A DNA stretch of 42,209 nt from Psammoneis japonica (Eukaryota): NCBI GenBank assembly GCA_008632985.1, contig QPGO01000233.1, positions 62,001-104,209 on the forward strand. The letters are read 5' to 3'. The notes under the pieces are model-generated. The model worked only from the letters and a program-made list of their open reading frames with translations. It was not told the DNA's origin and searched no databases. Positions 10,873 through 40,671 of the stretch are shown piece by piece. Within the stretch, counting starts at the first letter, position 1. Each line of letters begins with the position of its first letter. Made by a program: the position numbers and the translations under genes.

Positions 10873-11356
10873 TTCTGTGTTGCTCAGATTGTGAGGGCAA
10901 ATTCACACAACACTCTGCCATGCAACCATTGTGCAGTTCAAGCTCAGCCCGGTCAGCGGTTTTCTTCTGCATGACTGACTTGCTTCGGATCATGTCCACG
11001 AGTGTCTTGGCAAGACAGACAGCACATGCTGAAATGTGCTGACAAACACCGGTGAAAAATGGCGGGAAATTTTTGGGTGTCAGGCCCTTGTGACGGATGT
11101 GACAAATGGCTGTGGATCTTCCTTGGCATCATCTGTGTCACAGTGAATGCCAAATGAATCACCACAAAGAAAAGTGCATCAGCCAATTGTCTCAAATCTT
11201 TTCTGACGCATGTCTGGGATGTGTGCAAGTTCTGCGCTGCTGCATGTGCCATTGGCAAAAACTGCGCTTTTGTCTGCCAAGACCTGCAAGATTGCAACAG
11301 ACCTTGGGTCTCTTTGGCAGCCCTGTGCTGCTGTGAGGAGTTGGAGAAGGTGATCA

Positions 11357-12390
11357 AAGCGTTTGTGAAACAGGTGCTGCTCTGGGTGTGGCCCCACTGG
11401 CCTGGAGTCTAGGCTGGTGAAACTGGAGCGACCAGAAATTGGGCTCCAGTGCAGGAGCAAAGTCTCTCACCTCAACACAAACAGCGGTGCAGTGCTTGGA
11501 GGCAAGATTGCTGCCGCAAATCTAAAACTCAAAGGAGGTCAAGGAAAGCAACCTGAAGAAGCTGCAATGGATCCGGTCCTCAGCAGAGAGAACACACCAC
11601 CTCTGCTGGAGACTTGCCAACTCTACATGCACGGTTTCCTTTGACAGTCCATTGCCACCACCTGTGCAATCCTTTCCTGATTTGTGAAATGGCTCAGTTT
11701 GTGTGGCACAAAACAGTGTGAGGTGTTGCAGCAGTGCAACAACCTGTTGCTGTGACAAGTCACAAGTCAGCCCTTCTCTTCATTTGTTCGTGGACATTGT
11801 CAATGAATTTCTGTGGTGGCTTTGTGCAGTGCTTTTGATGCAGTGTGTGCATCCCTGCGGCCAGTTGCAACTCGAATCACCCGTGCAGGTGATTCCCATT
11901 GCTTTGTTGCACAGACAACAAAAGGCCAATCCTTGCCATCGTTGCAGCACAACGGGTTTGTTCTTGATGTCTTCGTTGTCAGAATCAGAAGCAATGTTGA
12001 GGCAGTCTGTCACCATTTTTCTTTCCAGTCTTTGCTGACCTGTGCATTCTTGGCTGATCCCAGTCCCTCGTCTTCCCAGTGATCAACTGCAATTCATCCA
12101 TCAATGCTGCTGGGGTCAGATTTCTTGTTGAACACAAAGGCCATGCTTGCAGGTTGACTGTGAATGGGAGTTGGCACCCAAGCATTTGCAAGCACAATGA
12201 GAAGACGAAGGCTGACAATCACTTTCCACAAGAGCGACTCTTGACTCGGTGGCAGAATTGACACAACTTTGTTCATCAGTTTCTTTTGTTTTTTTTGAAG
12301 TCTTTGCTGCGAAGCAGTGGGACAATGTGTGCGCGGCAGAGCCAATGGATGTGGATCTTGTTGATTGTCACTTTGGAAGGATGCAAGTGC
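11357..12390 (+). repeat. About 1-kb direct duplicate of 18914-19948, TpA/CpG-mutated copy (includes a pseudogene of 19320-19841)
   Basis: Co-linear match, e.g. tgtgacaagtcacaagtcag at 11751 and 19311. Protein MVTDCLNIASD / NWPQGCTHCI here vs MVIDYLNIASD / NWPQGYAHYI in the other copy. Confidence 0.95.
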
Positions 12391-12504
12391 AACAGCATTT
12401 GACAAAGAATTGCATCAATCAACGAAGTGTTGCCACTTTGTTTTTTAGACTTTCTTTGACCAGTCAATGACAATCTCACCGCATGCCATGTTGTGTGCAT
12501 CAAT

Positions 12505-15028
12505 CGTGTGTGTCAGGGATGACTCAATGGAAATGTGTCAGTGGAGCCACCAAGCAATGCACATTTGCCACAACCCCAAATGTCGAACATGCACCATCCA
12601 ACTGTCTGGAACTTGCAGCCATGTGTTGATCTTCAGCCTTGAAAATGGCAAGTTTTTCGTGCAGTGATTTTTGCCAAATGTTGAGAAATCATGATGGCAA
12701 ACCTCTCTGCTGTGTCTCTGACTCTCTCAGAGCATTGCTGAGACAAGCTCACTCTCTTTGATTTGCAGTGAATGACACCTTTGAAAGCTTTTGCAATGAC
12801 CATGACAAGCATGGTTGCGCACTCTGATGCTGCTTGCCACAAACAAGACAGGAGCGCCCATCCCAATGTCAACCTTTCCAAGGAGAAAGGCTTTGTCCCA
12901 CTTGGATGAGACAACAAGAAGGTGAGTTGACCACATGTTGTGCAGCAGTTGTGCAGAATTGCTTTCGTGGCTTGCTCTCTCCATGTCTGTCTCTCTCTCT
13001 CTTCTGTTGTGTTGTCGCTGCATCTGGTTTCTTCTCATTGTCTCACCATCACGGTTTCATTTGATCTGCAATGACTGCATGCTCTTGAGTCATGTCTCAC
13101 TTGTTTTGACAATGAGGGGGCTCTTGACAAATGCTTCAATGGGCTCCATGGGCTGGAGATTCTTGAAGTCAAGGCCACGGAGAAAGGTCAAGCCACACAT
13201 CTGAATCTCCAAGAGAAAGAGGAGGGAGCATGCCCTGTCTGCTGGGGCGGCAACAAGCAGAAAGTTCTCAAGCATGCTCCTGTGAAAAATGTGAGTTGAT
13301 CATTCAGTGCAGTGCCTTTGAGTTTTGCTGCTTTGCTGTGATCGGATTGTCCTTGTCTCATCGTCGCTTCCATCAAATTTTGCCTTTCCCGCTGGTTCTC
13401 ATCTCATGCATCCCAAATGATGGGCCATTTGTGCCAGAGGTTCTTGAGCATAAGAACAAGGAGACGGTTCAAGCAGATGCTCCAAAGAAAGAGAAGTGAT
13501 CCAGTTTCAACAATGGCTGGGGAGAGCAAGAAGTGCTCGAGTGTTCTCCTCTAAAAAATGCAGGCAGTCATTCATTTGGCATGTCGACCACAGCATGAAA
13601 GTTTCAGATTGTTTGCTGTGATTGATTCTTTTCATCTCACCATTGTTTCAATCTTTTTGTCTTTTCCTGCAGGTCCTCGTGTCTTGCATCCCTGCTTTGG
13701 CCGCTGGATTTTCTGCACTCAAGCAGCGCAATGCAACTGTGCCAGAACGTGAGGACAAGGAGACGGCTCAAGCAGACACACCGATTCTTCAGAAGAAAGA
13801 GAAGTGACCCAGTTTCAACAATGGCTGGGGAGAGCAAGAAGCACTTGAGTGTTCTCCTCTAAAAAATGCAAGTCATTCATCTGGCACATCGACTGCAACA
13901 TGAAAGTTTCAGATTGTTTGCTGTCATCAATTCTTTTTGTCTCACCGTTGCTTCAATCTTTTTGTCTTTCCTGCAGGTCCTCACATCCTGCGTCCCTGAT
14001 TTGGCTGCTGAATTTTCTGCACTCAACTGGTGCAGTGCAACTGTGCCAAAACACAAGGACAGGGAGACAGCTCAAGCGGACACGCCGATTCTTCAGAAGA
14101 AAGAGAAGCGACCCAGTTTCGATGATGATGGCTGGGGAGAGCAAGGAGCACTCGAGTGTTCTCCTCTGTAAAAAATGCAAGTCATTCATCTGGCACATCA
14201 ACTGCAACATGAAAGTTTCAAATTGTTTGCTGTCATCAATTCTTTTTGTCGCACCATTGTTTCAATCTTTTTTGTCTTTTCCTGCAGGTCCTCGCATCCT
14301 GTGTCCCTGGTTGGGCCGCTGAATTTTCTGCACTCAACCGGCGCAATGCAGCTGACGTGTTCCAGCCCCAGGTGACGCACAAAACAACAATTGGATTTTG
14401 AGTGTAATTTATGTGTGTTTTAGTGCACACAGCATTTTAACAAAAATGCTTGGACGGATTGACTTTCATGGGCTTCTAGAGTGTGAACATTTAAACAGTT
14501 TTTTGAGGGGCACTCAAATCCTCATGGGACGTGTGTCACAAACTTCCTCAGTGGACTCAGCGCTGATTGCACGTCAGCAGATTTACACTGAGATTTTTTT
14601 GTAGGTAGAAAACCTGCCAAGTAGCATCGTAGAAAGACACATTTAGGTGACATCCAAATGACGGCAACATTTTCGCCGAAAATCATCCGTTGTGTTGCGA
14701 GTCTTTCAACGCAATGAAAAACATGGACAGCACAACAACAATGACATTGCAACACTCACACGAGTCTTGTTGGTGTGTTGCAAAACATTTATATTTGTTC
14801 AAATCTATACTTTTGGTGGTGAAAGTTCGATCGTAAGTTGGGGACCGCGCAAAAATCGCGCAAATGTCGTTTTTGTGCACGACTTGGTTCGCGTGCGGCT
14901 GGAACACGTCAACTGTGCCAGAACACAAGGACAAGGAGATGGCTCAGACGGACACTCCCATTCTTCAGAAGAAAGAGAAGTGACTCAGTTTCGACGACGG
15001 CTGGGGAGAGCAGGAAGTGCTCGAGCAC
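12505..15028 (+). pseudogene. Copy 1 of a gene made of tandem ~300-bp exon+intron modules (split by the MITE)
   Basis: Co-linear with 32830-34600. Repeated unit ...cctgcag|GTCCTC...GGCTGGGGAGAG..GAAGTGCTCGAG..TTCTCCTCT.AAAAAT|gcaagt. Many TGA stops at former CGA codons. Confidence 0.8.
14355..14909. mobile_element. Non-autonomous TIR element (MITE-like), about 555 bp
   Basis: Perfect TIRs ACGTGTTCCAGCC (14355-14367) / GGCTGGAACACGT (14897-14909), with weaker subterminal symmetry. Flanked by CAGCTG / CAACTG. It interrupts a repeat module whose intact copies read ...gcaatgcaactgtgccagaa. Confidence 0.85.
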
Positions 15029-18913: not shown

Positions 18914-19948
18914 GAAGCGTTCGTGAAACGGATGCTACTCTCTAGTAGGTATGGTCTACTAGTGAAAATAGAGCGACCCGAGATTGGGTTCCAACACAGG
19001 AGCAGAGTCTCTCGCCGCATCACAAACGGTGGCGCAGTGCTCGGAGGTAAGATTGCGACCGCAAATCTAAAACTCAAGGGACGTTACTAAAAATGGAAAG
19101 TCAAGGAAAGAGACCTGAAGAACCTACAACGGATCCGGTTCTCAGTAGAGAGAACACACCACCTCTACTGGAGACTCGCCAACTCCATATGTGCGGGTTC
19201 CTTTAACAGTCCATCACCACCACCTGTGCAATCCTTTCCTGATTTATAAAATGGTTTAGTTTGTGTAGCATAAAATAGTGAGATGGTGCATCAATGCAAC
19301 AACCTGTTACTGTGACAAGTCACAAGTCAGTCCTTCTCTTCGTTTGCTCGCGGATATGATCAATGAATTTCTGTGGTGGCTTTACGTGGTGCTTTTCGAT
19401 GTAGTGTGCGTATCCCTGCGGCCAGTTGTATTTCGAATCACCCATGCAGGTGTTCCCCAGCGCTTCGTCGCACAGACGACAAAAGGCCAATCCTCGCCAT
19501 CGTTGCAGCACAATGGGTCCGTTCTCAATACCTTCATTATCCGAAGCAATGTTGAGGTAGTCTATCACCATTTTTCTTTCTCTGGGATCCCAGTCTTTGT
19601 CGACCTGTGCGTTCTCGGCGGATCCCGGTCCCTCGTCTTCCCAATAACCAACCGCGATTCGTCCATCGATGCTGTTGGGATCAGATTTCTTGTTAAACAT
19701 AAATGCCATGCTTACAGGTTGGCTGTGAATGGGAGGTGACGTCCAAGTATTTGTAAGCACAATGAGAAGGCCGAGGCTAACAATCGCTTTCCACAAGAGC
19801 GTCTCGCGTCTCGGTGGCAGCACAGACACGATTTTGTTCATCAGTTTCTTTTGCTCTTTCTCACGTCTTTACCAGTGGGATGTTGCACGTTCGGCCGAGC
19901 CAATTGATGTGGAGCTCGTCGATTGCCACTTCGGAAGGATACAAGTGC
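18914..19948 (+). repeat. About 1-kb direct duplicate of 11357-12390, TpA-retaining copy
   Basis: Co-linear alignment by eye; TA and CG retained where the other copy has CA/TG. Confidence 0.95.
19320..19841 (-). CDS. Hypothetical protein with a CxxC + HxxxxH putative metal site (likely start MFNKK...)
   Basis: AVGYW...VIDYL...WRGLAFCRLC...G...YNWPQGYAHYIEKHHVKPPQKFI; intact frame, and a decayed duplicate exists in the window. Confidence 0.65.
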   Translation of the reverse strand: MNKIVSVLPPRRETLLWKAIVSLGLLIVLTNTWTSPPIHSQPVSMAFMFNKKSDPNSIDGRIAVGYWEDEGPGSAENAQVDKDWDPRERKMVIDYLNIASDNEGIENGPIVLQRWRGLAFCRLCDEALGNTCMGDSKYNWPQGYAHYIEKHHVKPPQKFIDHIREQTKRRTDL

Positions 19949-24168: not shown

Positions 24169-25499
24169 GGGATGTACTGTATATGTTTTAGCGACTGAGA
24201 GTAAGTGCTGCGGCGTCACCAGTTGAAAAATCGTCACTTTCTGCGTTCATCGTTTTCTGCAACTGAAACCGATACTGATGCTTTGAGTCTCTGCAAACCA
24301 AACCTACTCAGTGATAACTCTAGAGCCCTTCATGAGCCTTTCTAAGCAGCTGGAAGGATTGCAATTGGAACTCCGTTGTGTCACAAACGCAAGACGTGAT
24401 GCCCATGCCGACAGCAAAAAACGCAGCTATGGGTGAGTCGAATAAGTCGATTGCACTCAAACTTTCAAAACGGCATGTTGCACTTATGATGTGTCTCGAC
24501 ATTCAGAACATGGCAAACATCGTTGGGTCGACGTATCTTTCATGGGGGATCTTTTTCTACCGTTGTGTTATAAAGAGGTTGATACATTGGTTTGGTTTCC
24601 GGGGGGCTTCGGTTGCGACACACGGCATGATAAACAAACTGTTGCGTGCCTCGACTCCTCGTGACTCAACACTCAACTGCGCGGGACGTTTAACACGTAA
24701 CACTTGAATGGTCGACAACGCTGCGGCGGCAAGTTCTTTCTGTTTTTCTCATTTTATATCGTTTTCTTACTCACTAAAGATCATTGTTGCGTTTTGTTAC
24801 AGCTTGAAAGGTGGATGGATCGTCTCCTGCGGTCGATCATGGTGTCTGTTGTGTTGGCATGTTTTTCAAGTCGTTGGTGCCAAAGCGCATCCGTTTAGGA
24901 GCTTTGTGCTTCATCCCACTCTACATCCTTTGGTGAAGATGAGGCGGTGGCTCAAGCAGTCGAGGTCTCTTGCGCGTAGCGTGAGTCCCTGGTTTCGGCG
25001 TTTGATTTTCTTTGTTGTTCGCACTTCGGCACACGTCCTCTAACACGGCAAGGGAAATGAACGACGTTTTGGACCGGTGGTTCTTAATTCTTGCTATCGG
25101 TTCCTGCTCATATTCTCGTGTATTTGCTTCTGGCGGGCTTTTTCACTGTTCAAACGATTGTGGACGTGCTGAACGTAGGGGAGTTGGGCGGCGCGAGCTG
25201 CTGTCACGGTCGCTCCTTTTATCATCGCTTGCGGAATGGAAAGGCTAATTTCGACCGCTTTGAGCTTGCTAACGATTTATTTCAACTTCCGCAGTGACAC
25301 TTTCTTCCCACCATTCAACGTGATCTGGACACATTTCAACACGTTTTGCTAGTGTTGCATGTCCGAAGCGACAGCAGAACTGTCGAGAAGACCGTACAGC
25401 GGCATTTTCTTCAGCATCCTTGAGCAATGAAGCAGCAGATAATGTATATAGATGACTCATGGTTTGTCACTGTTCTTTATAGTGTTTGTTGACCCGTCG

Positions 25500-26800
25500 C
25501 GTTGGACAGGCAGAGCAACACCCAACTCAGGATTTGTCACTCCATGACTCAGATGATCCAGAATCTGCAACTTCAGAGACTCCAGAGGGAGCAGAGCTTG
25601 ATGAGCTCAGCAATGACAGTGACGATGAATTGCCCTTGTTGATCATCATGACTCACATGAAGATCTAGATGTTGGTTTTGATGAAGCAGAGCCTGTGCCA
25701 CCAGCTCCAAATGCTGCTGCTGCTCCCACTCGGACTTGCAATGACCACACTGTCAAGAAACCAGATTGCATCTTCATTGAGTCCATGAAGGCCAAAATCT
25801 GCACCCCACCCAACAAGTCACACTGGCTGCACATGAAAATTCCAAATGCTTTGTCAGGTCAGAGACATTGAACAAGCAGTTTTTGATGACACTGCATTGG
25901 GAAAGCATCACAAATGCCCTCAGATCAAAAGACTTGCGTGCTGTGATCAAAATCTTTGACAAAAATGCTGGTCAAGAATGTGGGCGATGCACTCAAAGAA
26001 ATCCAACTTGGGAAGAAGGAACAAGTGAGCCTGATTGCACAGCCCATCTCCACCAGGCTTGTGACATCAAAGTTGACTCCCTTGCCACCAAGATTGGATG
26101 AATGTGCTCCCACCCACTTGGGCCTTTGCCCTGATTGATTCATCCAAAAATGTGATGCCAATTTTTTGTCTGTGGAGACAAGGAGCAGCTGGAAGTCATT
26201 GATCATCTGATGCTTCAGCTCTGGTTGTAAATCAGACAGCAGCCCAGCTTGTGGTCATGCTGTCTCAAATTTTGGAGATCTCTGCCAAGCAAGTCAATCA
26301 TGTCACTGCTTTTGCACATGCTCCCATCAGCACGGATCCCAAATGGGGTGCCATGATGCCCAAAGAGTGGGGGTGCACTGGCGCATGTGTGCAAGGATGC
26401 TCCAAGCCTGACAAAGCACTGAAGCTCAAGAAGACCATTTGCAATCTCAAACAAGGACCGTGCAATTTTTTTCCTGCAGCTGAAATCAAAGCTTGAAGCT
26501 GGGCTTCAATCGCAAAAGGACGTGGGCTCATGCCTCTTTGTGTCTGACAAGGTCAGAGTGCATCAACAAGGAGGTCAAAAAGTTCAAAATCAGTGGTGGT
26601 GTGTCCTTCAAAAACTCAGATTCTGCTGCATTTTCTTTTGGGCATCCATGTCAATTGTGATGCCAACAATGGCTCAACCAAGCTGACCCAGTGTGCCTGG
26701 TGGCCAAGTGCGCCATTGATGCTCTCAATGCAGGTGATCTTCCAAAGGCCCCAACACCTGCACCAGCGGCTCTGTTGGTCTGCGTTGGTCAAGGATGCTG
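25500..26800 (+). mobile_element. Ty1/Copia (CoDi-like) reverse-transcriptase remnant 1
   Basis: WMNVLPPTWAF (26096), CGDK, KQVNHVTAFAHAPI and KALKLKKTICNLKQGPCNFF (consensus LKKSLYGLKQSPRNFF); many frameshifts. Confidence 0.85.
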
Positions 26801-27699
26801 ATGGAGACCCACAGAATGGAGCCCCCAGTTGTGCCAGTGTGGCTGGCATGCTCCAGTGGTGCCTCTGAGGCGCCCCAGGCCCCCAACGTTGTCACCTGTG
26901 CAGCTGCTGGCCCAGCAGCCAGGTTTGTTTTTGGCCCAAGCTGCTCACATGAGCTGGCCCTCATGAGGATCAGCAAACTCATCAGGGGCTCACTTGAGGA
27001 AGAAGGTTCAGCCCCCAAGCCATCTGGGGTCTTCAGCGCCAATTTTTTGTCAGTGCTGCTCAGAGTTTGCCGGGGCTGTGCCCTCACGAAGACAAGCAAG
27101 ACCAGGCTTGTGTCAAGAGTCAATCAGGACTTGTGGCCTGCATTTCAAACTGTCCTGTCATTGAGTCTGGCAAGCTTGCACTCAAGATTGCTCTCTCCAC
27201 CATGGAGGCAGAGTGCCGCCCCCTCCCCAGTTGTGCCAAAGCCGCCCTTCCCTCCCTTTCTCTGCACCACGCAAGCCACTTCTCAAGGTGCTGGAGCTGG
27301 TCTGGGAGCTGTCGAGACCACCAAGACTGCCTTGAGAGAGGGCAATGCTGGAGCTTTAATTTTGGCCAATGTGGAACCTGGACAAATTGCACCAAGGTTG
27401 TCCCAGCTCTGCTCTGTGGTTGGCAGCTTCTTTGTTCAAGAGGCAGTGTCATTGCAGTGCGAGCTCATGCATGCTCATGCACACAAAAATTTCGCGCTTG
27501 CACCAAATTGTTTTCCCATGGGAAAGTTGTGCTGGAACGCTTGCAGACAGGAACGGTCAGAAAGAAGATCAAGCAGTCTACGTGGTGCTGAGTGCATTGA
27601 AAGCAAACTGTTGGGTTGTTGTTGTTTGTTTGTCATCCCATTGTTTGCCAAGCAACCAGCCCTCTGGAGGCAGCAAGACAACCAAGCAAACACACCATC

Positions 27700-28830
27700 A
27701 TGGACGACGGCAAGCACAAGCACACGACCAGACTGGGGCGTCGCGCTTGGACTCCTCTGCTCTGGGATGTCTGTCTCACTCAGACTCTGCTCTGGGATGT
27801 CTTGCTTGGACTGGACAATGACTCACCCACACTGCTTTCTCACTCCATCTGATGACAGGATGTCAACCTGTTGGATGGATTGCTCTGAAAACACAGGAGG
27901 AAGTCGTCACTGATGCCATTCAGTTTGTGGAAGAAATCATCACCACCAATGATTGCTCAGACAAAGAACTTGCAGAGTTCTTTTCAGAGTGTTCTCAGCA
28001 CCATCATGGCTGCAACAAATGCCAGCAAGCATTCTGTTGAGCACACGTGGCATCCAAACAGTCCAACAATTTGGAACTTGCACAGGACATCCAAATGTGG
28101 TGTGAAAGCCACCCTGAATTCATGTCGTGGCACCAGGTGTGTCAAGGATCCTACACGGCGAACCAAGAGCTTCCCAAGTGGGACAATCATGAATCGGTGA
28201 AAGCAGATGGAGTGGTCAATCACAAGCCTGCGCCGTCCGTGGAATCATGGCTGCTCCTTCTCATCAAGCAAAGCCACACCTGGCTGGAGAACAAGAAAAA
28301 AGGATGGGAGGAAGGCCTTCCTCATTGTGGTGCACCAATCTCAGACTTTTTCAACAAGCATTGCATGACAGCTGGTTCCTTTGTCACACGGGAAGTGCGC
28401 TCCAGGATTGAGACGGCCCTCAAGAGCGCTCCGGAGCAAGAGGAGCTTGAATTTTGCGTCCCCAGTGACACCACTGCCAACAATGACCCCTCATCCCACA
28501 GTGCGGCCATGTTGCCTGCTGAGTCCCCCGCAGTTGTTCCCATTGCACAAGATTTGCGTGGACGAGGTTCAAGACATGAGTCAAGCTAAGATCGGTTTGC
28601 CATTTTTGGTGAGCACAAATCACCCTGATTTTCTTTTTCTGGCTGGTGACCCTGCTCAGGCTGTGGCCCAGGGTGTTGACTTTTGTTTCAAGGTGGTCCG
28701 TTCTGTCATTCACATGATTTTTGAAGGCAGGGAGAAGATTGAGCATTGGCAAAAACTCTGCCACAACTTTTGCAGCCATGAGGGGATGTCCTGAAAGTGG
28801 CCAATTCTGCACTGGGCTGTCTTCTCAAGG
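27700..28830 (+). pseudogene. UvrD-like SF1 helicase fragment (TRANK1/LBA1-like)
   Basis: ICVDEVQD (Walker B), FLAGDPAQAVAQGVDFCF, LCHNFCSHEG (consensus L..NYRSH.G); frameshifted. Confidence 0.7.
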
Positions 28831-29104
28831 CCTTTCCCACAGCAGCATTGAAGCTGGAGCATGATGCGGGACTTGTTCAGGGTGAGCTTTAAGTGTGCAT
28901 CAAACTGTTGCCTTTTGCCATTCTTGAAAGCAAGCATCACTTGTCCATCTGTTGGCTTGTTTTTCCTTGTTTTGTTTGAAAGGACTCCAGCCAGGACTGC
29001 TGACCAGTGACCACAAGGAGCTGCCCGAGCTTCTTTGCATTGCAGACACAAAAAAAGCAAAAAGAATGCTCTTCAAACCCTTGGACCACTTCAAACAGTG
29101 TTGA

Positions 29105-29190
29105 ATGTTGGCATCTGCTTGAGCCGCCCAGCAAGCTGTTGGCACCTGCTCAAGCCACCTGGCAAGCTGTTGGCATCTGTTTGAGCCACC
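29105..29190. repeat. About 31-bp tandem repeat, roughly 3 copies
   Basis: tgttggca(t/c)ctg...(g/a)agcc..c..gcaagc repeated. Confidence 0.7.
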
Positions 29191-29929
29191 TTGCATGATG
29201 CAGCGTGCACTTGAGCCGTCTTGTTTGAAATGGCATGAACTTGAGCTGCACCACATGATGTGACATTTTCCTGTGGAAACATGGACAAAAAATCAAAGGA
29301 AAACAAGAAGTTGAGAAAACTAAAAAATGCATTGAATCAACAGATTAAATCAAATGCTTTGGAGTGATGGGATCATCTTGCTGAGAATGTGAGAGAATGA
29401 AGAAACAAATTTCGGCTCCAGAGAATGTTTTCATTTGTTTTCATCATGAGCCAGTTTTTGGGTTGACAACAGCAGGTCCAATGGCATCAACACAAAATTG
29501 ACAATGCTCATTTTCAGCCATGATGACCATTGTTGCAGGTGCTTTGTGTTGGTGATGTTTGTGGTGGTGGGAGAAACTGGAAACTGGCTGTTTCCGTCCA
29601 CACACATGCTGCTCACTGCAATGCTGTGCAATCACCTGTGCTCCTGATGTGAGCACTGGTGCTAACTGTGATGCTGTGCAAGTGCCTGTGCTCCTGATGT
29701 GAGCACCGGTGCTGCACTGTGCCCCAACTGGGCTCTGTTTGTTTTGTGCTTTGCAGTGTGAATTTGAAATTTTTGACATTTTGGCCTTTTTCTGTTGTTT
29801 TCGCTTGACGTTTTGGCAAGCGTCCCGCAGTGCTGCAGCGTGCACATGTGTTTTCAAAATCACAACAATCAAAGCCAGACATCTCTGCAAAACACTGTTT
29901 TTAAAATCACAGACTCAAGTGGTGGATTG

Positions 29930-31180
29930 ACAGCATGTGGAGGATGGCATGGAAGATGCACTTGGTGGCGGAGCACAAGGTGATTCAAGTCATTTGAAGC
30001 ACAATGTGGTGATTCGATTGCAGCAACAAAGCCTTGCTCCTGCCCAAGAACTCACATGGGTGTTGCACCACCACTTCACATGCACGTCAAAAAAAGACTG
30101 CAGTTGGACATCATTCTCTGGAGGAGTGTCACTTCAGCATTGCAGCAACGGCAATCATTTGCAGCATTTTGGTCACTGCAAGTGTGGCAAAAGAAGACAG
30201 TGCTGTCTTTTTAACAGAAATGCCAGACAGATCTAGATTGCAACAAGATGATTGTGTGTGCAGAGTTCTTGCCGGTCAAACAGTCATGGCATTGCAGCAC
30301 AAGGACAAAAATGCATTGGAGCTGATCACACAGTTGCACAAAGACAGAAACAACAGAGGCTTCCTGAAGGACTGGCAACATTTTCATGCTTGAAATGGAC
30401 CTCTGCTTTCCCCAGTCATCACACCAAATGTGTCTGCAGACACTTGTCCAAGATGCCACATGGTGCCCTGCATGTGCGCACTGAGGAACCCTGCTGTTTG
30501 GACCTTCCCAAGCCTGTGTGCAACTGGGCTCAAACCATGAGTGGTGGTGATGCAGAGGAACTCCTCAACCAAGACACACCCAAGCCACTTGGCAGTTTGG
30601 TTGCCATGACTCATCATGTTGATGCAAACTTGTTCCATTGCATGCTTGCCAGTGGGTGTTTCATTGTGGGCATCATTCATTTCCTCAACAAGTTTCTGGC
30701 TGGCCAATGGTTGTTCTCCAAGAAATGAGCCACAGCCAAGACTGCAACACATGGATCTGAGTTTGTTGCTGCCAGGACCTGTGTTGAACAGATCATTGAT
30801 CTGCGCATCACTTTGCGTCACCTCAGTGTCCTGATCCATGACACCTGTCACATGTTCGGGGATGACAAGTCAGTTGTGGACAGTGCTGCCATCCTGCACT
30901 CCAAGCTGCACAAGCAACACACACCACCCTCTTGTTCCTTTGCATGTGCAAAGCCATTGCCTCCAGCTTCCTTGAGCTTCATTTCATTGAAGGCTCGCAC
31001 AACCCAGCTGATGTCCTCAGCAAGCAGTGGGGTTGCCCCCAGATCTGGAGCCTCCTCTGCCCCCCCCCCCCCCCCCTCATGTTTTGGAACTTTGATCCCA
31101 AGGCCTTTGTCCAATGTCCAATCTGATGTCAAATCTGTCACTGCAGACTCTTCAAGCAAGAAACTGGGGAGTGACAGGAT
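29930..31180 (+). mobile_element. Ty1/Copia (CoDi-like) RT-RNase H remnant 2 with 3' polypurine tract
   Basis: HVRTEEP, PKPLG..V.MTHHVDANLFHCML, FSKK*ATAKTATHGSEFVAARTCVEQIIDLRITLRHL, MFGDDKSVVDSA, HSKLHKQH, NPADVLSKQWG. GGGGAGTGACA at about 31166. Confidence 0.9.
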
Positions 31181-31299
31181 TTGACCAAGACTTCAGCTTG
31201 TGCACATGATTCTGTGTGCTCTTGGTTCCATGCGTGGTGTGCAATGCAGTTTGCTTTGAAGCCACTCAGCTCACAAGAACAACAACAGCAGTGCTGACA

Positions 31300-32540
31300 T
31301 CATGCCACACATCTTTCAGCTCCTGCAGTGGTCTTTGCATGGAGACTCATCTGCCATTTAGACTGCCGCAAGGAGCCATTGTTTTCTTCCATCCATTTCC
31401 TCCTCAATTGCTGTCAAACTGTTTTGAGCGAGTCAAAAAGATTGGCCCCAACCAATCAAAAAAGTTGGTTTCTGGCTCTGCAGGAAATGGGGATTGTGCA
31501 GTGGCAAAAAATGGACAGAAATCCTGCAGCTGGGAAAGCCAAGTGTGCTGCTGTTGGGGACAATGTGACCTGGGGCACAGTGCTGCAAGATCAACCTTGC
31601 AATGCCCAACAACAGCTCTTGAAGTCTTGCCCTGGGCCCATGAGAGCTGTGTCCTCAGCTTGCAGCCATCAGCTTGGCCAGCGCCACAATGGCACACTTT
31701 TGGAATGAAATGACTTGGAAATTAAAGTTTGTTGTTGCTTCATTTTGTCAACAAGCACAAAATTGTTCTGGAGCACTTGTTGAGAACACAGGATTCTTGT
31801 TGTCAAGCACAGATCAGCTCTGAACAAGAACAACAAAATTTTCCAGACAATGAAGACATTGGGGGACAGAGCAACCAACCAAGCAAACTCTGGAGTGAGG
31901 CAAAAGAAAACAGGGATGGCAATGCTGGTTTGCAGCTGCCACAACTTTGCAAAGTTGACAAAGTCACAAATGACAACAAAGTTGACAATGTTGCCAAAAT
32001 TGCCAAACTTGACAAAGTCGCCCAAATCAGCACAGTTGCCAAAGTCAGCAAACTTGACAAAATTGCCAAACTTGACAAAGTTGTGCCTGCAAAAGGTTTT
32101 CTCTCTTCTGCACATGAGACAAAGTGCTTGATGATTCACACTTGGGCGAATGTTGGCTCAAATGTTGACACAAAAATGTCTGCAATTGCTTCATTCTTGT
32201 CAACACACACAAAACCAATCCCCCATTCCTTGTTGGCACAAGGAATGCATGCATTGCAGATCCAAACATGGGTGGAGCATTTTGACTGTGCCCAGTTTTG
32301 CATTGTTGGTTTGGATGAAATGTCCAGCAATCCCTCCACAGCACTTTGGAACGGGTCTTGGATCATTTGGACAATCCTCCTCGTGTTGTTGACACTCCCC
32401 CAACTTTGGCCCAAACAATCAATGGGACTGTGGTTTGGATGCCATTGTTGACCAGGACACACTGGCTCTTTTGGCCTGGTTTTGTGAGTGGCGCAATGAG
32501 ATTCTCCAATTTTTGTCGAGCTTGTTGCAAATGTTTTGTG
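31300..32540 (+). pseudogene. Sulfotransferase-domain gene remnant with an internal low-complexity insert
   Basis: PMRAVSSACSH (cf. P..RAYSAY.H), SLLAQGMHALQIQTWVEHFD.AQF.IV..DEM..NP, ERVLDHL, WFCEWRNE.L. Confidence 0.55.
31950..32085. repeat. 9/18-bp period tandem repeat (aaa-ntt-gmc; KVDK/KIAK/KLDK)
   Basis: aaagttgacaaagtc...aaaattgccaaacttgacaaagt repeated. Confidence 0.75.
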
Positions 32541-32829
32541 CCTTTAGAATGGCGATTGTCACCCCAGCGTTGTGCAACTCTGTGCAGGAGGATCACAACA
32601 GCCAAATCAGTTGCTTTGTCATTGGCTCTCCACTGAAGCCAACTTCCACAACTCTGCTGGAGACACACCTCAAGAACAATGAGGAGCAGCTTTTGTTTGT
32701 TGGTTTTTGAAAGCGGCACTTCTGGCAAGTTACTTCGAAGTAGAAGAGATTGTGAGTTGAAAAAACGCTGTGTTATGATGTGCCGCATGCAAAGTAGAAG
32801 CATTCTGTCACACACACCAACTGGAGTGT

Positions 32830-34600
32830 TTTGTGTTAGAGATGACTCAACGGAAAGGAATCGCCGGAATCACTGAACAATGCACATTTCCCACGACCCC
32901 AAATGTCGAACATACGAAGTGTACACACAGCAATTACACAGACTCATGTCACAGTCTCTCCAGTCTTGAACATTGCATGCTTTTCGGTTCGACAGCGGTT
33001 TTGCCAAAAACGTTGACAAAAATGAACCATGACGGCAAACCTGTCCCCTGCGTCTCTGACTCTCTTGTGGCATCGCTGAAACAAGCTCACTTTCTTTGAT
33101 TCGCATTGAACGACACCTTTGAAAGCTTTTACGATGACCATGACAAGCATGGTTGCGCACTCTGATGCTGCTTGCCACAAACAAGACCCGGACGCCCATC
33201 CCGAGGTCAACCTTGCCGAAGAGCAAGGCTTTGTCTCGCTTGGACGAGACAAAAAGGAGGTGAGTTGACTGCGCATTGTGTTTCAGTCGTGCAGTTTACT
33301 GCAATCGCTTTCGTGACTTGCTCTCTCTCTGTCGCTCTCTCTTCTGTTGTGCTGTCGCTGCATCTGGTTTCTTCTCATTGTCTCACCATTTCGGTTTCAT
33401 TTGATCTACAACGACTGCAGGCTCTCGAGTCATGTCTCACTTGTTTCAACAACGAGTGGACTCTCGATGAACGCTTTGACGGGCTCTGTGGGCTGGAGAT
33501 TCTTGAAATCGAGGCCATGGAGAAAGGTCAAGCCGCACCTCTGAATCTCCAAGAGAAAGAGGAGGGAGCACGCCCTGTCTCCTGGGGTGGCGACGAGCAG
33601 AAAGTTCTCGAGCACTCTCCTGTGAAAAATGTGAGTTGATCATTCAGCGCATTGCCTTTGAGTCTCACGGCTTTGCTGTGATTAGATTGTCCTCATCTCA
33701 CTGTCGCTTCCATCGAATTGCCTTTCCGCAGGTTCTCGCATCATGCATCCCAGGTGATGGGCCCTTTGCGCCAGAGATTCTTGAATGCGAGAACAACGAG
33801 ACTGCTCAAGCGCATGCTCCAAAGAAAATGAAGCGACCCAGTTTTGATGACGGCTGGGGAGAGCCAGAAGTGCTCGAGCATTCTCCTCTCAAAAATGCAA
33901 GTCATTCATTCGACATGTTGTTTGCCAGCATGCCATGTGTTTGGGGACTTGTTGTCTCATCGTCGTTCGAATTTATGTGTGTTTTCCTGCAGGTCCTCGT
34001 GTCATGCGTCCCTGCTTTGGCTGCTGAATTTTCTGCACTCAACCGGCGTAATGCAACTGTGTCGGAACGCGAGGACAAGGAGACAGCTCAGGCGGACATG
34101 CCAATTCTCCAGAAGAAAGAGAAGCAACCCAGTTTCAACGACGGCTGGGGAGAGCCAGAAGTGCTCGAGCATTCTCCTCTCAAAAATGCAAGTCATTCAT
34201 TTGGCATGTCATCTACAGCATGAAAGTTTCAGATTGTTTGCTGTCATTCAGGCTTGTTGTCTCACCCTTGTTTCAATCTTTTTGTCTTTTCTACAGGTCC
34301 TCGCATCTTGCGTCCCTGCTTTGGCCGCTGAATTTTCTGCACTCAACCGGCGCAGTGCGACTGTGCCAGAACGCAAGGACAAAGAGACGGCTGAAGCAGA
34401 CACGCCGATTCTTCAGAAGGAGGAAAAGCAATCCAGTTTTGATGGCTGGGGAGAGCCAGAAGTGCTCGAGCATTCTCCTCTCAAAAATGTAAGTCATTCA
34501 TTCGGCATGTCATCTACAGCATGAAAGTTTCAGATTTTTTGCTGAGTTTGGGGAGTTCTCATTGTCATTTCAATCCATGTGTTTTCCCCTGCAGGTCCTC
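32830..34600 (+). pseudogene. Copy 2 of the exon-module gene (phase-0 exons 33421-33630, 33732-33896, 33993-34187, 34297-34488)
   Basis: All four exon lengths are multiples of 3. Acceptors are YAG after pyrimidine tracts. Donors GTGAGT (33260, 33631), GCAAGT (33897, 34188), GTAAGT (34489). Exon peptide VLAS.VPALAAEFSALNRR...DGWGEPEVLEHSPLKN. Confidence 0.82.
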
Positions 34601-34814
34601 CCGATCTTGCCTTGGGCAGTGGCTCCCAAAAGGGCACGAGTGAGTGACGAGGCATCCTTGCCAAGATGGTTGTCGTTCCCTTTCTTGAAAAAGGTCAGAT
34701 CCAGCAGTTGCTTGTTTGCAGGATGCTCGTCCAGGTTGTCATTCTTGAGAGCACAGACACTGGTGCCCAATGCACATTTCTCAAATGCCAAACAGATGTT
34801 GCTGGTCTTGAGTG

Positions 34815-35075
34815 CACGCATCTGATGGTCTGATGTGAGCACCTTGTGGAATGAAATGCACTCCACTGAGCTCTTGCCAGCCTCTGCCATGACTTGGCAA
34901 AACAACTGTGCAGATTCATGGGGAGCGGATCTGCCCCTTTGCGAATGATGCACGCATCTGATGGTGTCTGATGTGAGCACCTTGTGGAATGAAATGCACT
35001 CCACTGAGCTCTTGCCAGCCTCTGCCATGACTTGGCAAAACAACTGCAGATTCATGGGGAGTGGATCTGCCCCTT
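34815..35075. repeat. About 136-bp tandem duplication
   Basis: cacgcatctgatgg...gattcatggggag.ggatctgcccc at 34815 and 34951. Confidence 0.9.
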
Positions 35076-36474
35076 AGCAAATGGCACTGCTGTGAACTTG
35101 ATGGTTTGTGCACCCCTTCAAGAGGCAATTGCCTTGGCAGAACAATCCAAAGCAGGTCCAATCTCTGCATTTCCAATGGATGCAACAGTGACGCTGAGCA
35201 ATTCACCAGATTTGCACCACTCTCCATGGGCACAGGAGCTGCTTTGAAAGGGGCCATGCCAGTTTTGATAATTCTTTTGCCAGTCTTCTCCACTTGCTGG
35301 GTGGCATTGGCATTGATGGCCATTGTTTGTTTGTCCAGCTTGCTGTCCAAAAGGGTGGCCATTCGATCTTCCGCCGACTGCTTGGCTTTTCATGCCGCAT
35401 TTGATGCCTCCAACTGTGCTTGCAACTCAAGCATTTTTTCATTGTTCCTTTCTTTGCCTTGTCAGCAGCAATCTTGGCTTTTGATGTTGCATTTGATGCC
35501 TCCAGCTGTGCTCACAACTCTGCAATCTCTTGTTGTTGTTGTTCCAGCTTTGCATTTTGCTCCTTCATTTTTTGATCTTTTTCATTTGATCCAAGCGCAG
35601 GTCATCAACAAGATCTTTTGTAAAACTGGTTTTGTCTTTGATCACACTGACTTGGATTTGTCATGCAGCTGCATCATCAGCTGCTGCCATGACCTTGCTT
35701 TCTTCCATGTGAGCCCAATGATCTGCAGACACAAAAAAGGACCATGCATCATGCTGGGGGGTGGCGGTCCACGATGGCCACCTTCGAGTTCCCCTTTGAC
35801 ATCATCTTTGAAAGTTCTGATGGGCACAAGGTGTTGATGGTAGGAGGTGTCACAGCAGACATGGGTGGTGGCTTGCTGCTGTCATTGGCACTGGCAATGT
35901 TGCTGCTGTGCACGGAAGCTGCGGGTGCTTGCAGGGCATGGTCGATCTTCCATTGCATGTGTCTGGACCGTGTGGAAGCAAAGAGCTCACAGATGGGCTT
36001 TGGGCAAGGGACATTGCACAATTCTGAAAGACCATCCTTGATCTCTTGGACAGACCATTCCGTCTTTTGGGGGTTCTTGTGCATGACAGCTGAAATGGCT
36101 TGGTGCGTGTCGCGAGGCTCCAACTCAAACTTGCCCGATGGCTTGCGAATGAAATTTGATCCATCAAAGCTGAAATGATTCTTCTTGACTGATCACAAAC
36201 TCTAACCAATCACTGTTGCATCCTTTGGTCTGAAAGTAGATGGTGTTTTGCTCGACAGATCGAGATCCAGCTTTGGCCAAACAGAAGCGCCAGGCGTCGT
36301 GCATTCGCTGATCTCTCACAACTTGCTGCAATCAACGCATCGACGGTGCGCATGACACATTGCGTGCTGCCAACAGTGGTGACGTCCCTGTCGGGTGCCA
36401 GTTCTGCACGACAAACGCGGCGATCGGAATCCTTCGTCATGGTGGATTTGTTGTTGCTCGTTGTGTTTTTTTTT

Positions 36475-36861
36475 NNNNNNNNNNNNNNNNNNNNNNNNNN
36501 NNNNNNNNNNNNNNNNNNNNNNNNNNNNNNNNNNNNNNNNNNNNNNNNNNNNNNNNNNNNNNNNNNNNNNNNNNNNNNNNNNNNNNNNNNNNNNNNNNNN
36601 NNNNNNNNNNNNNNNNNNNNNNNNNNNNNNNNNNNNNNNNNNNNNNNNNNNNNNNNNNNNNNNNNNNNNNNNNNNNNNNNNNNNNNNNNNNNNNNNNNNN
36701 NNNNNNNNNNNNNNNNNNNNNNNNNNNNNNNNNNNNNNNNNNNNNNNNNNNNNNNNNNNNNNNNNNNNNNNNNNNNNNNNNNNNNNNNNNNNNNNNNNNN
36801 NNNNNNNNNNNNNNNNNNNNNNNNNNNNNNNNNNNNNNNNNNNNNNNNNNNNNNNNNNNNN
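36475..36861. other. Assembly gap (N run)
   Basis: Run of N. Confidence 1.
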
Positions 36862-39800
36862 CAGATCCCAACGATCCGACTTCTCGAAACGGTATTTTTG
36901 CCAATGCCGACTTGGAGGAGGACGAGCTCATCATATCCGTCCCTCCCGAGTGCCTCATTCGTTCTACTCCACCCAAGAAGGACGGTCCTCTGGCTGTGGG
37001 GGACCGAGTCGAAGGAAACTACAGAGACGAAGGCGAATGGTATCCGGCGAGTTGACTGCGGTTCACAGCGACGGAACCTTTGACATTCATTACGATGACG
37101 GCGACAAAGAGGCAAACGTCAAGCCGAATCTCATTCGAGATATTCGACCTGGAGAATACGGGTCCATGGATTGTCTTACGGTCCGCAATCTGATTAAGGA
37201 AATGCGTTTGGCCGATGAGTCGCAGTTTGCACCGTATGTGAACTATCTACTCGAGCAGGAACGAGGACAGTTGCCGAGTGCGTGGTCTGAACCTGCAAAG
37301 AGTCTATATTCTGAAATTTTACAAGGCGGTAAAGGGCAAGTTCTCCCGCCTAGTCATGCGGTTGACTGGATATCCGAGACCTGGCGAAAGGTATGCAACG
37401 GCAGTAAAGATCCGTTTGAAGAAAACGCCGCGTTGCTCGTGGTGCAGCGTGGATGGGACGATATCCTTATTCCTCTATACGACATGATGAATCATCGCAA
37501 CGGACGATGGCTCAATACCAAGAGTAACTCAGTACAAGAAGTCTACGATGGGGCCGACGTAGAGGTCCGTGCGTCTCGAAAAGTACATGCGGGAGAAGAG
37601 TTGTGCACCACCTACAACTTTTGTGAAGACTGCGGCGCAAGGCTCGAAACTTATGGCACTCCGGAGATACTCCGCGACTATGGCTTTGTTGAGCAATATC
37701 CACAGCGCTGGATATTTCACAACCAGCGGCTTGCGTTTGATCTGGACGAGAACGATGCTGGCGAAGTGCAGCTTTGGTGGCTCCAGGAACCCAATGAAAG
37801 GGGAATCCAATTTCTTCGACAACAGTTACAGCGACTTCAGCAGATGGAGGAAACTCAGCTGTCATTAAAGCCTCGTTCAATACCGGCAAATGAATGGGCA
37901 CTCATCAACAAATTTCATCAAGCCATCACGAATGCAATGCGGCATGCCATCAGGGACGTGAACGGGGAAGACGACGCGTGTGCCAGCGGACAAGGCGAAT
38001 GCGCCGTTTTTCTTGCTAGATATGACGATCTAGATTGGCAGGCAGACGATTTAGAATACTCCATGTACACATGTGACACGGACGAGAGTATGGGGTTTCG
38101 TGGGTATGACTCGATCGAGACAATCCATTCACCCTACCAGAAGATACATTTTATCAAAGACCCGAAGAACAACGACGTATGCTTCGATTTGGACGGTACG
38201 TAATCACTATTTTTTTCGAAATTCCTCTTCAATTATATTCGGCAAAGACTGCCCTATTTTACGCTTCTGATTGATTCATTCAACTCAAACTTTTTCTGAC
38301 TCTTTAGACATTGTCCAAATTTGCGGAAGCTATCGCCCGCACTATCACGAAATGGTGGTTCACTACGCCGCACGTTTTCTAAAGGATATTAGACGGGTAG
38401 TTTGGGTTGGTGGAGGTGATTCAATGCTTTTGCACGAAATTATCAAGTACCCGAACCTTGAAAAAGTCATTGGCTTAGAGCTCGACCAAAAGGTAACAAG
38501 GCACAGCTTCAAGCATTTCGGGACACAACCCCATTGGGATAATGACAAGGTCGAGTGGTGGTATGGGGACGCGACCAAGAGCCTTCTCATGCTACCAGAA
38601 GACTATTTTGGCTCGTTTGATATGGTTCTCGTTGATCTGTCCGAGACTGTTAGTACGTATCGAAGCGTGTCGAGTGCCTATTTCTCTCGGACCTTGTATC
38701 AAAATTCACATTCCGACTCTTTCTCCAGTGTCATTCTTGGTAACGGCAGAATTGGATGTCATGGAAGCCCTTTCGCTTCTTTTGAAACCAGAAGGCATCT
38801 TTGTAAAGAATGAGCTGTACTTGGAGAAGCTGAGCAAAATATTTGACTACACTATTCAAATTCACTACTATGACACTCCTGTTATTTGCTCCCAAGCACT
38901 GATAATGGGAAGCAACAAGGTCGATTTTCTTCATCGAAATCTCACGGACCATGGAATAGAGAACCTCTACTTGCCACCGCTTGACTTGAGCAAGGATAGG
39001 TACGAGATCTTCCACGACTACAGAAGGAATCACACGAGTGTTCAAAAGCATTGCAAAGATGTGTTGGACCCGGAGCGAGAACCGGAGGTACAAGACAAGA
39101 GCCCAGGAATTCTCATGATTCTCGAGGCTGAGAATGTCGCTGGAAAGCTTTCTACTCCGAAGGATTTGAAACATTCAGTTGAGCAGGCCCTCAAGAATGC
39201 CGGTCTTTCTGTGAAAACATCTGTATTATCGGATGAGAAGGGTGGCATTATCTTTACTATCCTTAAAGAAGGCTACGTGGTCGCTCGTATGTGGCCGGAG
39301 CATAATTATTGTGCGTTTGATGTCCACTTGTGGAGTCGCTTCAGCCTCCACGACAACGTGAAGAAGGCTCTACTGGATGCCGTTCAAAGTTCTTCTTCAT
39401 CTTCTTTTCGTATCGTTGCGGGAGGCATGTTTAACGTAGACTCATGGCAAGGGGACGTGAAGAGCCGTGGGCCGCGTATTACTCAATTGTGTGACCGTCC
39501 ACCCGCTGTCGCACGAGATGCTGAGTTTGATCAGAAGCAAATCGATGTAGTGCTGGATGAAACCTTGGCCCTTACCCAAGACAGTAGTTGCTTCGTTTCG
39601 GTTCTATGTGGACGGGAGAAGAACGGCTGCAGCAGCTTGGATGTACTTCAGAAGAGTAGCAACGTCGGCGATGTGTTGGCGCTGTGGACATGTTCCGGCT
39701 TGGACAGCAATGAGTATGCCGAAGGAGTATCGAATCAGATGTTTGAGTGCGAAAAGGAGCTTCTTGCTGCAATGAGGGGAGCAGTCGCTGAGAAAGACCA

Positions 39801-40671
39801 GCAAATTCGCTCAATCGTTGTAGACACCGGCGCACCTCGTGCTTCTACTCAGATCCTGCATAGAATCTTTAGCAGCAACTTCAACAGGCACGAACTGTTG
39901 ACCCCGGACGTGTTGATTGTTGCACCAATGGTTAACCCGGACGAAGATTGGCGAAGACACTTTTTGGAGCGTTTCCGGAAAGATATTATTGAATTTGAGC
40001 CTGTGTTTAGGAGCGAAGTCAAGTTCAACACATCAGACAGCAGTCTCGAGCTAGGCCTCACCTCATCGGGCGACACTCATTTCTTTCGACATTTGGTCGA
40101 ATTGACGGAGAGAATTGAAAAGCTGACTGGTCTCGTATCAGAACCCCGCATTGTAGCCGGCGGCTTTTGGACATACCAAGACGACTTTGTGCCGTCTCAA
40201 TTCTTTTTGCCTGGTGACTACGACCAAAGTGGACCGCTTGAACAGTTCACTAAACAGCAGCCATTGGGCCATCAAACCATCTTTCAACTGGAAGACCAGG
40301 GAGACGTTCCCAAAATACGTTGCAGCCAAGTCAAAGAGAATTTGAGTAGAGCGCTCGAAGGAGTGGCATCCGAAGGTACTGCTCGTGTGAAGGTTGATGA
40401 GTTCTCGGACGAGGGGGACGGGTGTGTTCTTCTTTCCATGTGGTCAGGAGGTTGTGCCATTGTAATGTGGGACGGGAATATCCACATTGACATCAACATA
40501 TTCACTTACTCGGAAAGTGTGGATGTTGCCAATAACTTTGCGGATGCCTTCAAGGCAGAGAATCCATCGTTGAAGGTCGTTCTGAGAGATGAACAACCGA
40601 GAGGGTTTGGTCGTGTTGTCAACTTTCTAAAAGATATTGAGCCACGGGCTGATCCTCACTGGGCCACTTAA
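36862..40671 (+). CDS. Putative long-chain polyamine synthase fusion: SET methyltransferase with inserted Tudor domain + aminopropyltransferase + two degenerate AdoMetDC-like domains (5' end missing at the gap; introns 38196-38307 and 38653-38728)
   Basis: GIFANADLEEDELIISVP; Tudor VGDRVEGNY..EGEWYP/..DGTFDIHYDDGD; PLYDMMNHRNG; ELCTTY; ILRDYGF; YHEMVVH, WVGGGDS.LLHEI.KYP, GDA, FDMVLVD; AdoMetDC-like ILKEGYVVARMWPEHNYCAFDV and HIDINIFTY..EQPRG. One frameshift near 37045 (CCGG), probably a sequence error. Confidence 0.88.

Follow-up and report, generated by a model that had tools for sequence, protein, structure and literature searches.

Loss of conserved tyrosines from two Copia remnants as a probable coding footprint of TpA-directed hypermutation

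Introduction

Why do fragments of Copia retrotransposon proteins lack the very tyrosines that their relatives conserve? The question arises at positions 25500-31180 of a 42,209-nt stretch of DNA (contig QPGO01000233.1, positions 62,001 to 104,209, deposited under Psammoneis japonica; hereafter the window, to which all coordinates refer), which is interrupted by one N gap at 36475-36861. Working from the sequence alone, an initial annotation had compared Copia-like motifs in this region with a CoDi-type Copia consensus and named seven substitutions of tyrosine by histidine or cysteine. It read them as TAY codons (Y, pyrimidine) turned into CAY or TGY, that is TpA into CpA or TpG, held that they fix the direction of mutation independently of a duplicate pair, and proposed that the process disables transposons by stripping their proteins of tyrosine. 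The analysis described here indicates that the replacements are probably the coding footprint of a process acting at the DNA level and confined to particular stretches, which has replaced almost all TpA by CpA or TpG in three repeat-rich blocks, with CpG decay in addition.

Results

Tyrosine loss in the Copia remnants

Region 25500-31180 holds two unrelated Copia remnants, not one element. The family B remnant (25802-27466, plus strand; tblastn with 34 phmmer matches) comprises the reverse transcriptase (RT) and RNase H part of pol, with its 5' end cut off, five frame pieces and four in-frame stops. The family A remnant (30426-31111, plus strand; tblastn) corresponds to the last ~225 residues of a polyprotein of 1860-1915 aa. 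To assess their tyrosines, we defined tyrosine columns as alignment columns with Tyr in at least 70% of the homologues. For family A, 119 of the 120 listed proteins cover the domain and were aligned, one being left out; for family B, a search with protein P0126 gave 1220 matches, 120 of which were listed, and the 101 covering the region were used, 19 being left out.

Not one of the eight conserved tyrosines is kept in family A: five positions read His, two Cys and one Ser (AGT), against 100 of 147 other conserved columns that are kept. The nine aligned tyrosine columns of family B give the same picture, with three His, five Cys and one Trp (TGG), and 139 of 257 other conserved columns kept. 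For both families together, tyrosine is retained at 0 of 17 positions compared with 239 of 404 for other conserved residues (Fisher p 4e-7), which bears out the proposal that tyrosine is stripped from the transposon proteins. The replacement is His (CAY) or Cys (TGY) at 15 of the 17 columns. Where homologues depart from Tyr at these columns, Phe accounts for 100 of the 132 residues and His or Cys for only 13, yielding a binomial probability of 9e-14 for 15 out of 17. The conceptual translations contain not a single tyrosine over 228 codons in family A and 507 codons in family B.

The seven named substitutions are all present in the sequence, and the consensus used is confirmed by real homologues. 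Five lie in the family A alignment, on the plus strand: THYVD has become THHVD through a CAT His codon at 30615-30617 (Tyr in 87% of 119 homologues), ATYGSE has become ATHGSE(F) through CAT at 30750-30752 (98%), LRYL has become LRHL through CAC at 30819-30821 (98%), SYMFGD reads CHMFGD with a CAC His at 30849-30851 (83%), and WGY reads WGC (SKQWGC) with a TGC Cys at 31034-31036 (95%). The other two, likewise on the plus strand, fall in the family B alignment at columns where all 101 homologues (100%) carry Tyr, namely QVDY to QVNH (CAT His, 26299-26301) and SLYGLKQ to TICNLKQ (TGC Cys, 26440-26442).

Intact relatives already carrying His or Cys at these places, which the initial annotation had named as the observation that would speak against it, were looked for and are scarce: 111 of 119 homologues in family A and 99 of 101 in family B have neither residue in any tyrosine column, and the highest count is three of eight (P0023). 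Because relatives so rarely carry His or Cys there, the direction is TAY to CAY or TGY, i.e. TpA to CpA or TpG; as judged from sequence comparison, it is fixed by the outgroups and does not depend on the duplicated gene pair.

Two short proteins from public assemblies show related features. P0128 (158 aa) reads QVDC, GVCVEM and SLHGLKQ where relatives carry Tyr, and P0023 (215 aa), with His or Cys at three of eight tyrosine columns, keeps nine of 11 Arg. Both may represent copies from other data sets that have undergone part of the TpA mutation.

TpA depletion in three blocks

A change of TpA to CpA (T to C) would turn a Tyr codon into His, and a change of TpA to TpG (A to G) would turn it into Cys. 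Since tyrosine is the only amino acid whose codons must hold an in-frame TpA, saturation of such a process would remove every Tyr; it would also remove TAA and TAG stops.

The base composition of the window agrees with this scheme. Over most of its length the observed/expected ratio (o/e) is 0.5-0.7 for TpA and near 1 for CpG. Three stretches stand out in 2-kb windows, with TpA at 0.03-0.10, CpG at 0.11-0.63 and CpA/TpG at 1.55-1.88. From the dinucleotide ratios and TpA positions they were delimited as block 1 (2079-3995), block 2 (9826-14404) and block 3 (25481-36470), the last being a mosaic of degraded repeats that extends for ~11 kb up to the N gap. The left border of block 3 is abrupt: dense TpA ends at 25478/25480, and the next ones occur only at 25666 and 26228. 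All three blocks have borders sharper than 200 nt. Within 25500-31180 there are 13 TpA in 5.7 kb (o/e: TpA 0.04, CpG 0.22, CpA 1.73, TpG 1.84). The two depletions are separable, as the 32-34 kb interval has a TpA ratio of 0.10 yet a CpG ratio of 0.63. The blocks contain the Copia remnants, repeats and one gene pseudocopy; repeats occur in all three of them: blocks 2 and 3 have segments in common, a dispersed repeat occupies 30.4-31.7 kb, and one gene copy is a duplicate.

As controls we used metagenome loci that encode relatives of family A, taking the best 80 of 328 that were confirmed; the search for them used peptide patterns that require Tyr or Phe. Their ratios range from 0.33 to 1.07 for TpA (median 0.70) and from 0.13 to 1.30 for CpG (median 0.64), compared with 0.00 and 0.02 for TpA and 0.11 and 0.18 for CpG in the two Copia remnants. 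As CpG ratios go down to 0.13 among the controls, CpG loss is common in family A and only the TpA loss is unusual.

A mutated gene copy and its spared twin

The window also contains a duplicated gene of the DUF7919 type. An intact open reading frame (ORF) of 182 aa, the unmutated twin, lies at 19320-19868 on the minus strand in DNA of normal TpA content (PF25535, E 3.7e-5, below the Pfam cut-off). Its mutated pseudocopy lies in block 2 at 11414-12305, also on the minus strand, and is 85% identical to 18959-19870. We found six homologues of the ORF (53-61% identity) and used all of them as outgroups. Tyr is present in six of six at four of the five tyrosine sites and in five of six at the fifth, where one homologue has Phe. 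All five Tyr codons of the intact copy are changed in the pseudocopy, one to CAC and four to TGC.

The pair allows the fate of individual dinucleotides to be followed. Among 31 TpA sites, 16 have become TG and 14 CA, a single one is kept, and never have both bases changed; among 47 CpG sites, 16 have become TG and 12 CA, and 11 are kept. T has changed to C at 14 of 31 positions before A versus 13 of 209 elsewhere, and A to G at 16 of 30 positions after T versus 14 of 184 elsewhere. As a relative estimate, 97% of the TpA sites changed, the rate being 45-53% at TpA and 6-8% at other T/A. Of seven CGN Arg codons one is kept and five read TGA, TGT, CAA (twice) and CAC, while four of six AGR codons are kept. 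Polarised with the six outgroups, the pair agrees with the direction TpA to CpA/TpG that was derived from the Copia alignments. Since the DUF7919 pseudocopy has been hit, the TpA loss extends beyond Copia.

The intact DUF7919 gene has as its nearest Atlas clusters mostly viral-labelled ones, at a score of 0.82 that lies below the trust level. Perhaps the supposed host twin has a viral origin itself.

The sparing of one copy bears directly on the first alternative, a duplication-triggered process resembling repeat-induced point mutation (RIP) or methylation induced premeiotically (MIP), in which homology between repeats would trigger their mutation, with TpA and CpG as the target sites in place of CpA. 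The presence of repeats in all three blocks would suit such a trigger, and so would the sharp borders, which are also seen in RIP. We nevertheless regard it as unlikely: a single DUF7919 copy is mutated and the other remains open with normal TpA, whereas RIP as described mutates both; the chemistry is opposite, RIP making TpA from CpA and TpA being destroyed here; and depletion extends to the family B remnant, on which few contigs of sequencing run X1 lie at 90% likeness. That one copy of the gene pair was mutated and the other spared thus argues against a homology trigger of the RIP kind, and it would favour targeting by place or state.

Strands and timing

Both strands were used to the same extent, as seen in the 16 TG and 14 CA products of the gene pair and in the eight His and seven Cys codons at the 17 Copia tyrosine columns; the ratios of CpA (1.73) and TpG (1.84) over 25500-31180 are similarly balanced. 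Further evidence comes from a depleted segment at 12480-13640, which is paralogous to 32803-33960 (80% identity), with 304-nt tandem units further on. At 24 dinucleotides one paralogue has CA where its counterpart has TG, compared with eight in the mirror RpY control (R, purine), and 72 of the 227 differences between them are transversions. At the time of the duplication, sites at which CA now stands against TG must still have read TA or CG. The comparison of these copies indicates that the process acted on DNA, on both strands and after the duplication.

These observations address a second alternative, in which an ADAR-like enzyme with a 5' U preference edited A to I in retrotransposon RNA before reverse transcription, so that the copies were mutated when they inserted. 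According to the Discussion of a preprint on Bigelowiella natans (Mettrop et al. 2026, bioRxiv 10.64898/2026.01.13.699255), ADAR does favour a U on the 5' side of the A that it edits; two of the affected sequences in the window are retroelements. Such editing would produce A>G on the sense strand alone, and hence Tyr to Cys and never Tyr to His; because both strands are hit equally, editing of sense RNA before reverse transcription is excluded as the source. Furthermore, the effect extends equally over whole blocks, in which unrelated fragments lie beside tandem repeats and a gene copy, and the two paralogous segments resolved the same sites differently after their duplication. Altogether we consider this route highly improbable.

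CpG decay and other coding effects

Arginine is the second residue that has suffered in the remnants. Conserved Arg is kept at four of 10 positions in family A and one of 12 in family B (five of 22 together), and the replacement is Cys, His, Gln, Trp or a stop in six of six and nine of 11 cases, respectively, as expected of CGN turning into TGN or CAN. The TGA stops that were checked stem from CpG loss. CpG to TpG/CpA is a second, ordinary decay in the same blocks, of the kind expected of 5-methylcytosine. Transitions with CA or TG as the product, a rule that covers TpA loss and CpG loss together, explain 30 of 55 replaced conserved residues in family A and 34 of 127 in family B; the mirror rule (product AC or GT) explains eight and 14.

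The initial annotation had also expected changes at aliphatic residues. We did find such changes (I>M, I>V, V>A, M>T); those on Ile and Val are few, and the Ile, Leu and Val effects as a whole are weaker and less diagnostic than the loss of Tyr.

Support from contigs

Contigs of run X1 match the interior of the block with zero to one difference over 497-866 nt; as this run is possibly the assembly's own source, the match is not independent proof of the sequence. A second run X1 contig differs from the window at 38 places over 27619-28112. Forty of 199 contig differences were listed, 27 of them inside the block. At 13 of these 27 the window has CA or TG where the other contig has CG (10) or TA (3); the rest are three reverse cases at CpG, seven transversions and four other transitions. 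The CG and TA of the second contig imply that less mutated alleles or copies coexist with the one in the window.

Could heavily modified bases in silenced DNA have been miscalled, so that CpG and TpA were read as TpG and CpA? Both affected dinucleotides are palindromic, like many sites of base modification, and the platform of the runs is unrecorded. This sequencing or assembly artefact is hardly credible, given that the run X1 contigs reproduce the sequence (with the reservation about their origin), that frame breaks, deletions and numerous transversions, such as those between the paralogues, are present in the remnants as well, and that the second contig retains TA or CG at some sites, which a systematic miscall would not allow. 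Least probable of all is selection in place of mutation, with elements that still work and have come to shun TpA and CpG, perhaps because a nuclease or sensor recognises these dinucleotides. RNA viruses are known to suppress CpG and UpA jointly, according to the accessible parts of two reports (PMC3829696, PMC7879557). Against this reading, the two Copia pieces have lost part of their length and their reading frame and contain stops, residues invariant in 100% of relatives are lost (e.g. the Tyr of YGLKQ), and their TpA ratios of 0.00-0.04 lie far under the lowest value of the 80 control relatives.

Sequence context beyond TpA

Context beyond the TpA dinucleotide matters, although not in a simple way. 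TpA sites that survive in the blocks are enriched in Y-TA-R (27 of 59, compared with 169 of 956 outside; p 1.6e-6). In the gene pair, a 3' C stands beside 14 of 29 changed A and one of 29 unchanged A. Six of the eight Tyr to His codons were changed on the strand with a 3' purine, which conflicts with such a third-base preference. The trinucleotide in largest excess in the blocks is TGC/GCA. The survival of Y-TA-R may be the trace of a recognition motif wider than TpA, though it is at odds with the contexts of the Tyr to His changes.

We also considered, and dropped, a dinoflagellate origin with 5-hydroxymethyluracil at TpA. A spliced-leader motif gave two matches with three mismatches compared with 2.1 expected, and genes lie on both strands.

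Anatomy of the Copia remnants

The family A remnant is interrupted by a single TGA (30726-30728), and its frame breaks by 2 nt near 30918. In tblastn it matches P0002 with 62% identity over 163 aa and 47% identity over 64 aa. The family A search used frame 30576-30935 with the TGA read as X and found 262 proteins; many of the 120 listed are polyproteins of 1860-1915 aa that carry PF07727. Residues ~1632-1851 of 1859 are represented, so that the window retains only the C-terminal part of family A and its RT part is lost. The RT-like piece of family B at 26203-26493 matched 34 proteins in phmmer (best E 1.2e-12), with PF07727 (RVT_2) in seven of seven that were scanned; the nearest named relative of this family is a polyprotein of Nitzschia inconspicua. 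The RVT_2 domain is present in scanned relatives of both families.

The initial annotation had treated the region as one CoDi-type Copia element. Both pieces probably belong to Copia, judging by their PF07727 relatives, but the notion of a single element does not hold, as two different lineages are involved. The one-element reading was rejected because 24 full-length family A polyproteins gave no match upstream of 30426 even at E 50, and because the RT piece 26203-26493 showed no similarity to the family A polyproteins in phmmer. Pfam searches with the raw ORFs of 25.6-31.2 kb returned nothing above noise. A complete gag-protease-integrase-RT-RNase H frame was not found; the pol parts present are 3' ones with broken frames (family A C terminus, family B RT plus RNase H), and a pair of long terminal repeats (LTRs) was not searched for.

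On the 3' side of the family A remnant, the sequence at 31112-31740 is piled with run X1 contigs, as judged by word depth, and is possibly an LTR. The summed word depth of run X1, which is not a copy number, reaches 25,397 at 31209-31475 compared with 64-176 over 25.6-29.0 kb. Very many run X1 contigs likewise fall on the dispersed repeat at 30.4-31.7 kb.

Other features of the window

Several further elements lie in block 3. Short tandem arrays occur between and beyond the two Copia remnants. Also between the remnants, 28369-28791 (plus strand) shows a weak UvrD-helicase trace near FLAGDPAQAV (E 0.0034, below the Pfam cut-off), perhaps left by a third element that has decayed. An exact 81-nt direct repeat (34828-34908 and 34966-35046, 138 nt apart) stands out in the otherwise diverged block and may reflect a recent local duplication or an assembly effect. 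The 304-nt tandem units, common to blocks 2 and 3, form arrays at 13485-14354 (2.8 copies) and 33948-34544 (2.0 copies) with 86-87% matches, and both arrays are TpA-depleted. Block 1 contains a helicase-associated-domain ORF of 196 aa at 3198-3785 on the minus strand, which still scores E 1.5e-18 for PF03457 despite a surrounding TpA ratio of 0.09.

Around the blocks, weak SET-domain ORFs (E about 1e-4) at 36863-38200 (plus strand) and 4456-4887 (minus strand) each stand beside a TpA-depleted block; other genes encode two LRR_6 proteins and one MYND-finger protein. At 38271-40668 (plus strand), a spermine/spermidine-synthase domain (E 2e-16) directly precedes an S-adenosylmethionine decarboxylase ORF (E 1e-8), and the two may be fused or form an adjacent pair. 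Polyamine-enzyme pairing and abundant helicase-associated domains are typical of diatoms; like the Copia relatives, they might hint at a diatom, as opposed to a chlorarachniophyte. Contigs of run X2, whose kind is unrecorded, give no cover over most of block 3. Just to its left they skip 74 nt (GT..AG) at 24431-24506 and 75 nt (GC..GC) at 24728-24804 in the manner of spliced transcripts.

Discussion

The changes in the window are specific to TpA, close to saturation and equally distributed over the strands; they end at sharp borders, and they have hit one gene copy while its twin was spared. By analogy, the process would correspond to that of B. natans, a hypermutation that the host directs at foreign or selfish DNA, and its targeting would follow the silenced state of the blocks, not duplication as such. 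The chemistry could be adenine deamination at TpA in DNA by an ADAT2-like enzyme, or a modification of thymine that mispairs with G. As TpA is self-complementary, the sequence alone cannot separate these two routes.

Several points weigh against this interpretation of the tyrosine loss. The terms 'targeted' and 'defence' draw on the block borders and on analogy. The accessible text of the B. natans preprint never mentions CpG, so that the strong CpG loss seen here leaves the match incomplete. One target is the copy of a gene without a transposon signature, for which 'foreign DNA' may be too narrow a description. The third-base context is inconsistent between data sets with regard to a T-A-C or T-A-Y preference, the search behind the 80 control loci could not have caught mutated copies, and run X1, which reproduces the sequence, is possibly the source of the assembly.

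A broader proposal can be put forward only tentatively, at somewhat less than even chances. TpA-directed hypermutation might be no peculiarity of a single chlorarachniophyte but a widespread genome defence of marine protists and the mirror image of fungal RIP. Here, in a second, distant lineage, probably a diatom, it would work on double-stranded DNA in place, mark silenced blocks jointly with CpG methylation, spare the active twin and saturate its targets, thereby deleting tyrosine and two of the three stop codons; the survival of Y-TA-R would then be a first hint of the enzyme's wider motif.

If the source organism is indeed not B. natans, TpA hypermutation has a wider occurrence, and LTR retrotransposons are among its targets. 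The end state is DNA without TpA, without Tyr codons and with TGA as the only stop. Such TpA-free stretches yield long spurious ORFs and escape Pfam, but scanning for dinucleotide ratios is enough to find them. The gene pair, of which one copy was mutated and the other spared, offers, together with the co-located CpG decay, handles on target choice and on whether one silencing system marks both palindromic pyrimidine-purine dinucleotides.

The process has already been documented experimentally in B. natans, and the window adds a saturated example in retrotransposon debris and one gene pseudocopy. According to the accessible text of that study (Mettrop et al. 2026), 231 of 302 nuclear mutations in mutation-accumulation lines fell in two integrated viral regions, 230 of the 231 were A>G or T>C, and all 230 were at TpA, at a rate of about 6e-7 per site per generation and about 1000-fold above the rest of the genome. 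The targets are integrated giant-virus and virophage DNA; the genome contains 124 TpA-poor, CpA/TpG-rich clusters, TpA-depleted coding sequences are enriched in reverse-transcriptase and DDE domains, and the authors propose that an ADAT2-like adenine deaminase is responsible. The likeness extends to TpA to CpA/TpG changes on both strands, their confinement to stretches and their clustering with reverse-transcriptase or transposase remnants; A>G and T>C changes in our window are likewise TpA-specific and confined to regions with foreign or selfish DNA. Unlike in B. natans, where new mutations were measured in culture lines, only the end state is visible here. Its measured targets still had TpA (Rho 0.45 in the nucleocytoplasmic large DNA virus region), compared with ratios of 0.00-0.10 in our blocks. 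CpG decay is co-located here, whereas the accessible preprint text contains nothing on CpG, tyrosine, Copia or third-base context. Beyond this preprint, our literature search gave no report of TpA loss in transposons among the papers listed.

RIP in Neurospora and other fungi resembles the present case in that transitions at one dinucleotide, limited to repeated or selfish DNA, reach saturation and destroy coding capacity. It differs in turning CpA into TpA and leaving a TpA excess, whereas TpA is at 0.03-0.10 and CpA/TpG at 1.55-1.88 here, and, according to the abstracts, in mutating both aligned copies, whereas one copy of the pair is untouched here. APOBEC3, acting on cDNA, and ADAR, acting on double-stranded RNA, inactivate retroelements in animals by context-specific transitions. 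This likeness is limited, as they act on one strand of a replication intermediate, whereas both strands were hit equally in our blocks, in place and in DNA other than retroelements as well. The decay of methylated transposons, finally, accounts for CpG to TpG/CpA in the same blocks and for CGN Arg codons turned into Cys, His, Gln or stop codons; it cannot remove TpA, and the two depletions can be told apart. In diatoms, including Phaeodactylum, LTR elements are described as CpG-methylated, and diatoms possess a RID-related DNMT4 of unknown function, according to the accessible parts of two reports (PMC2806351, PMC9998398).

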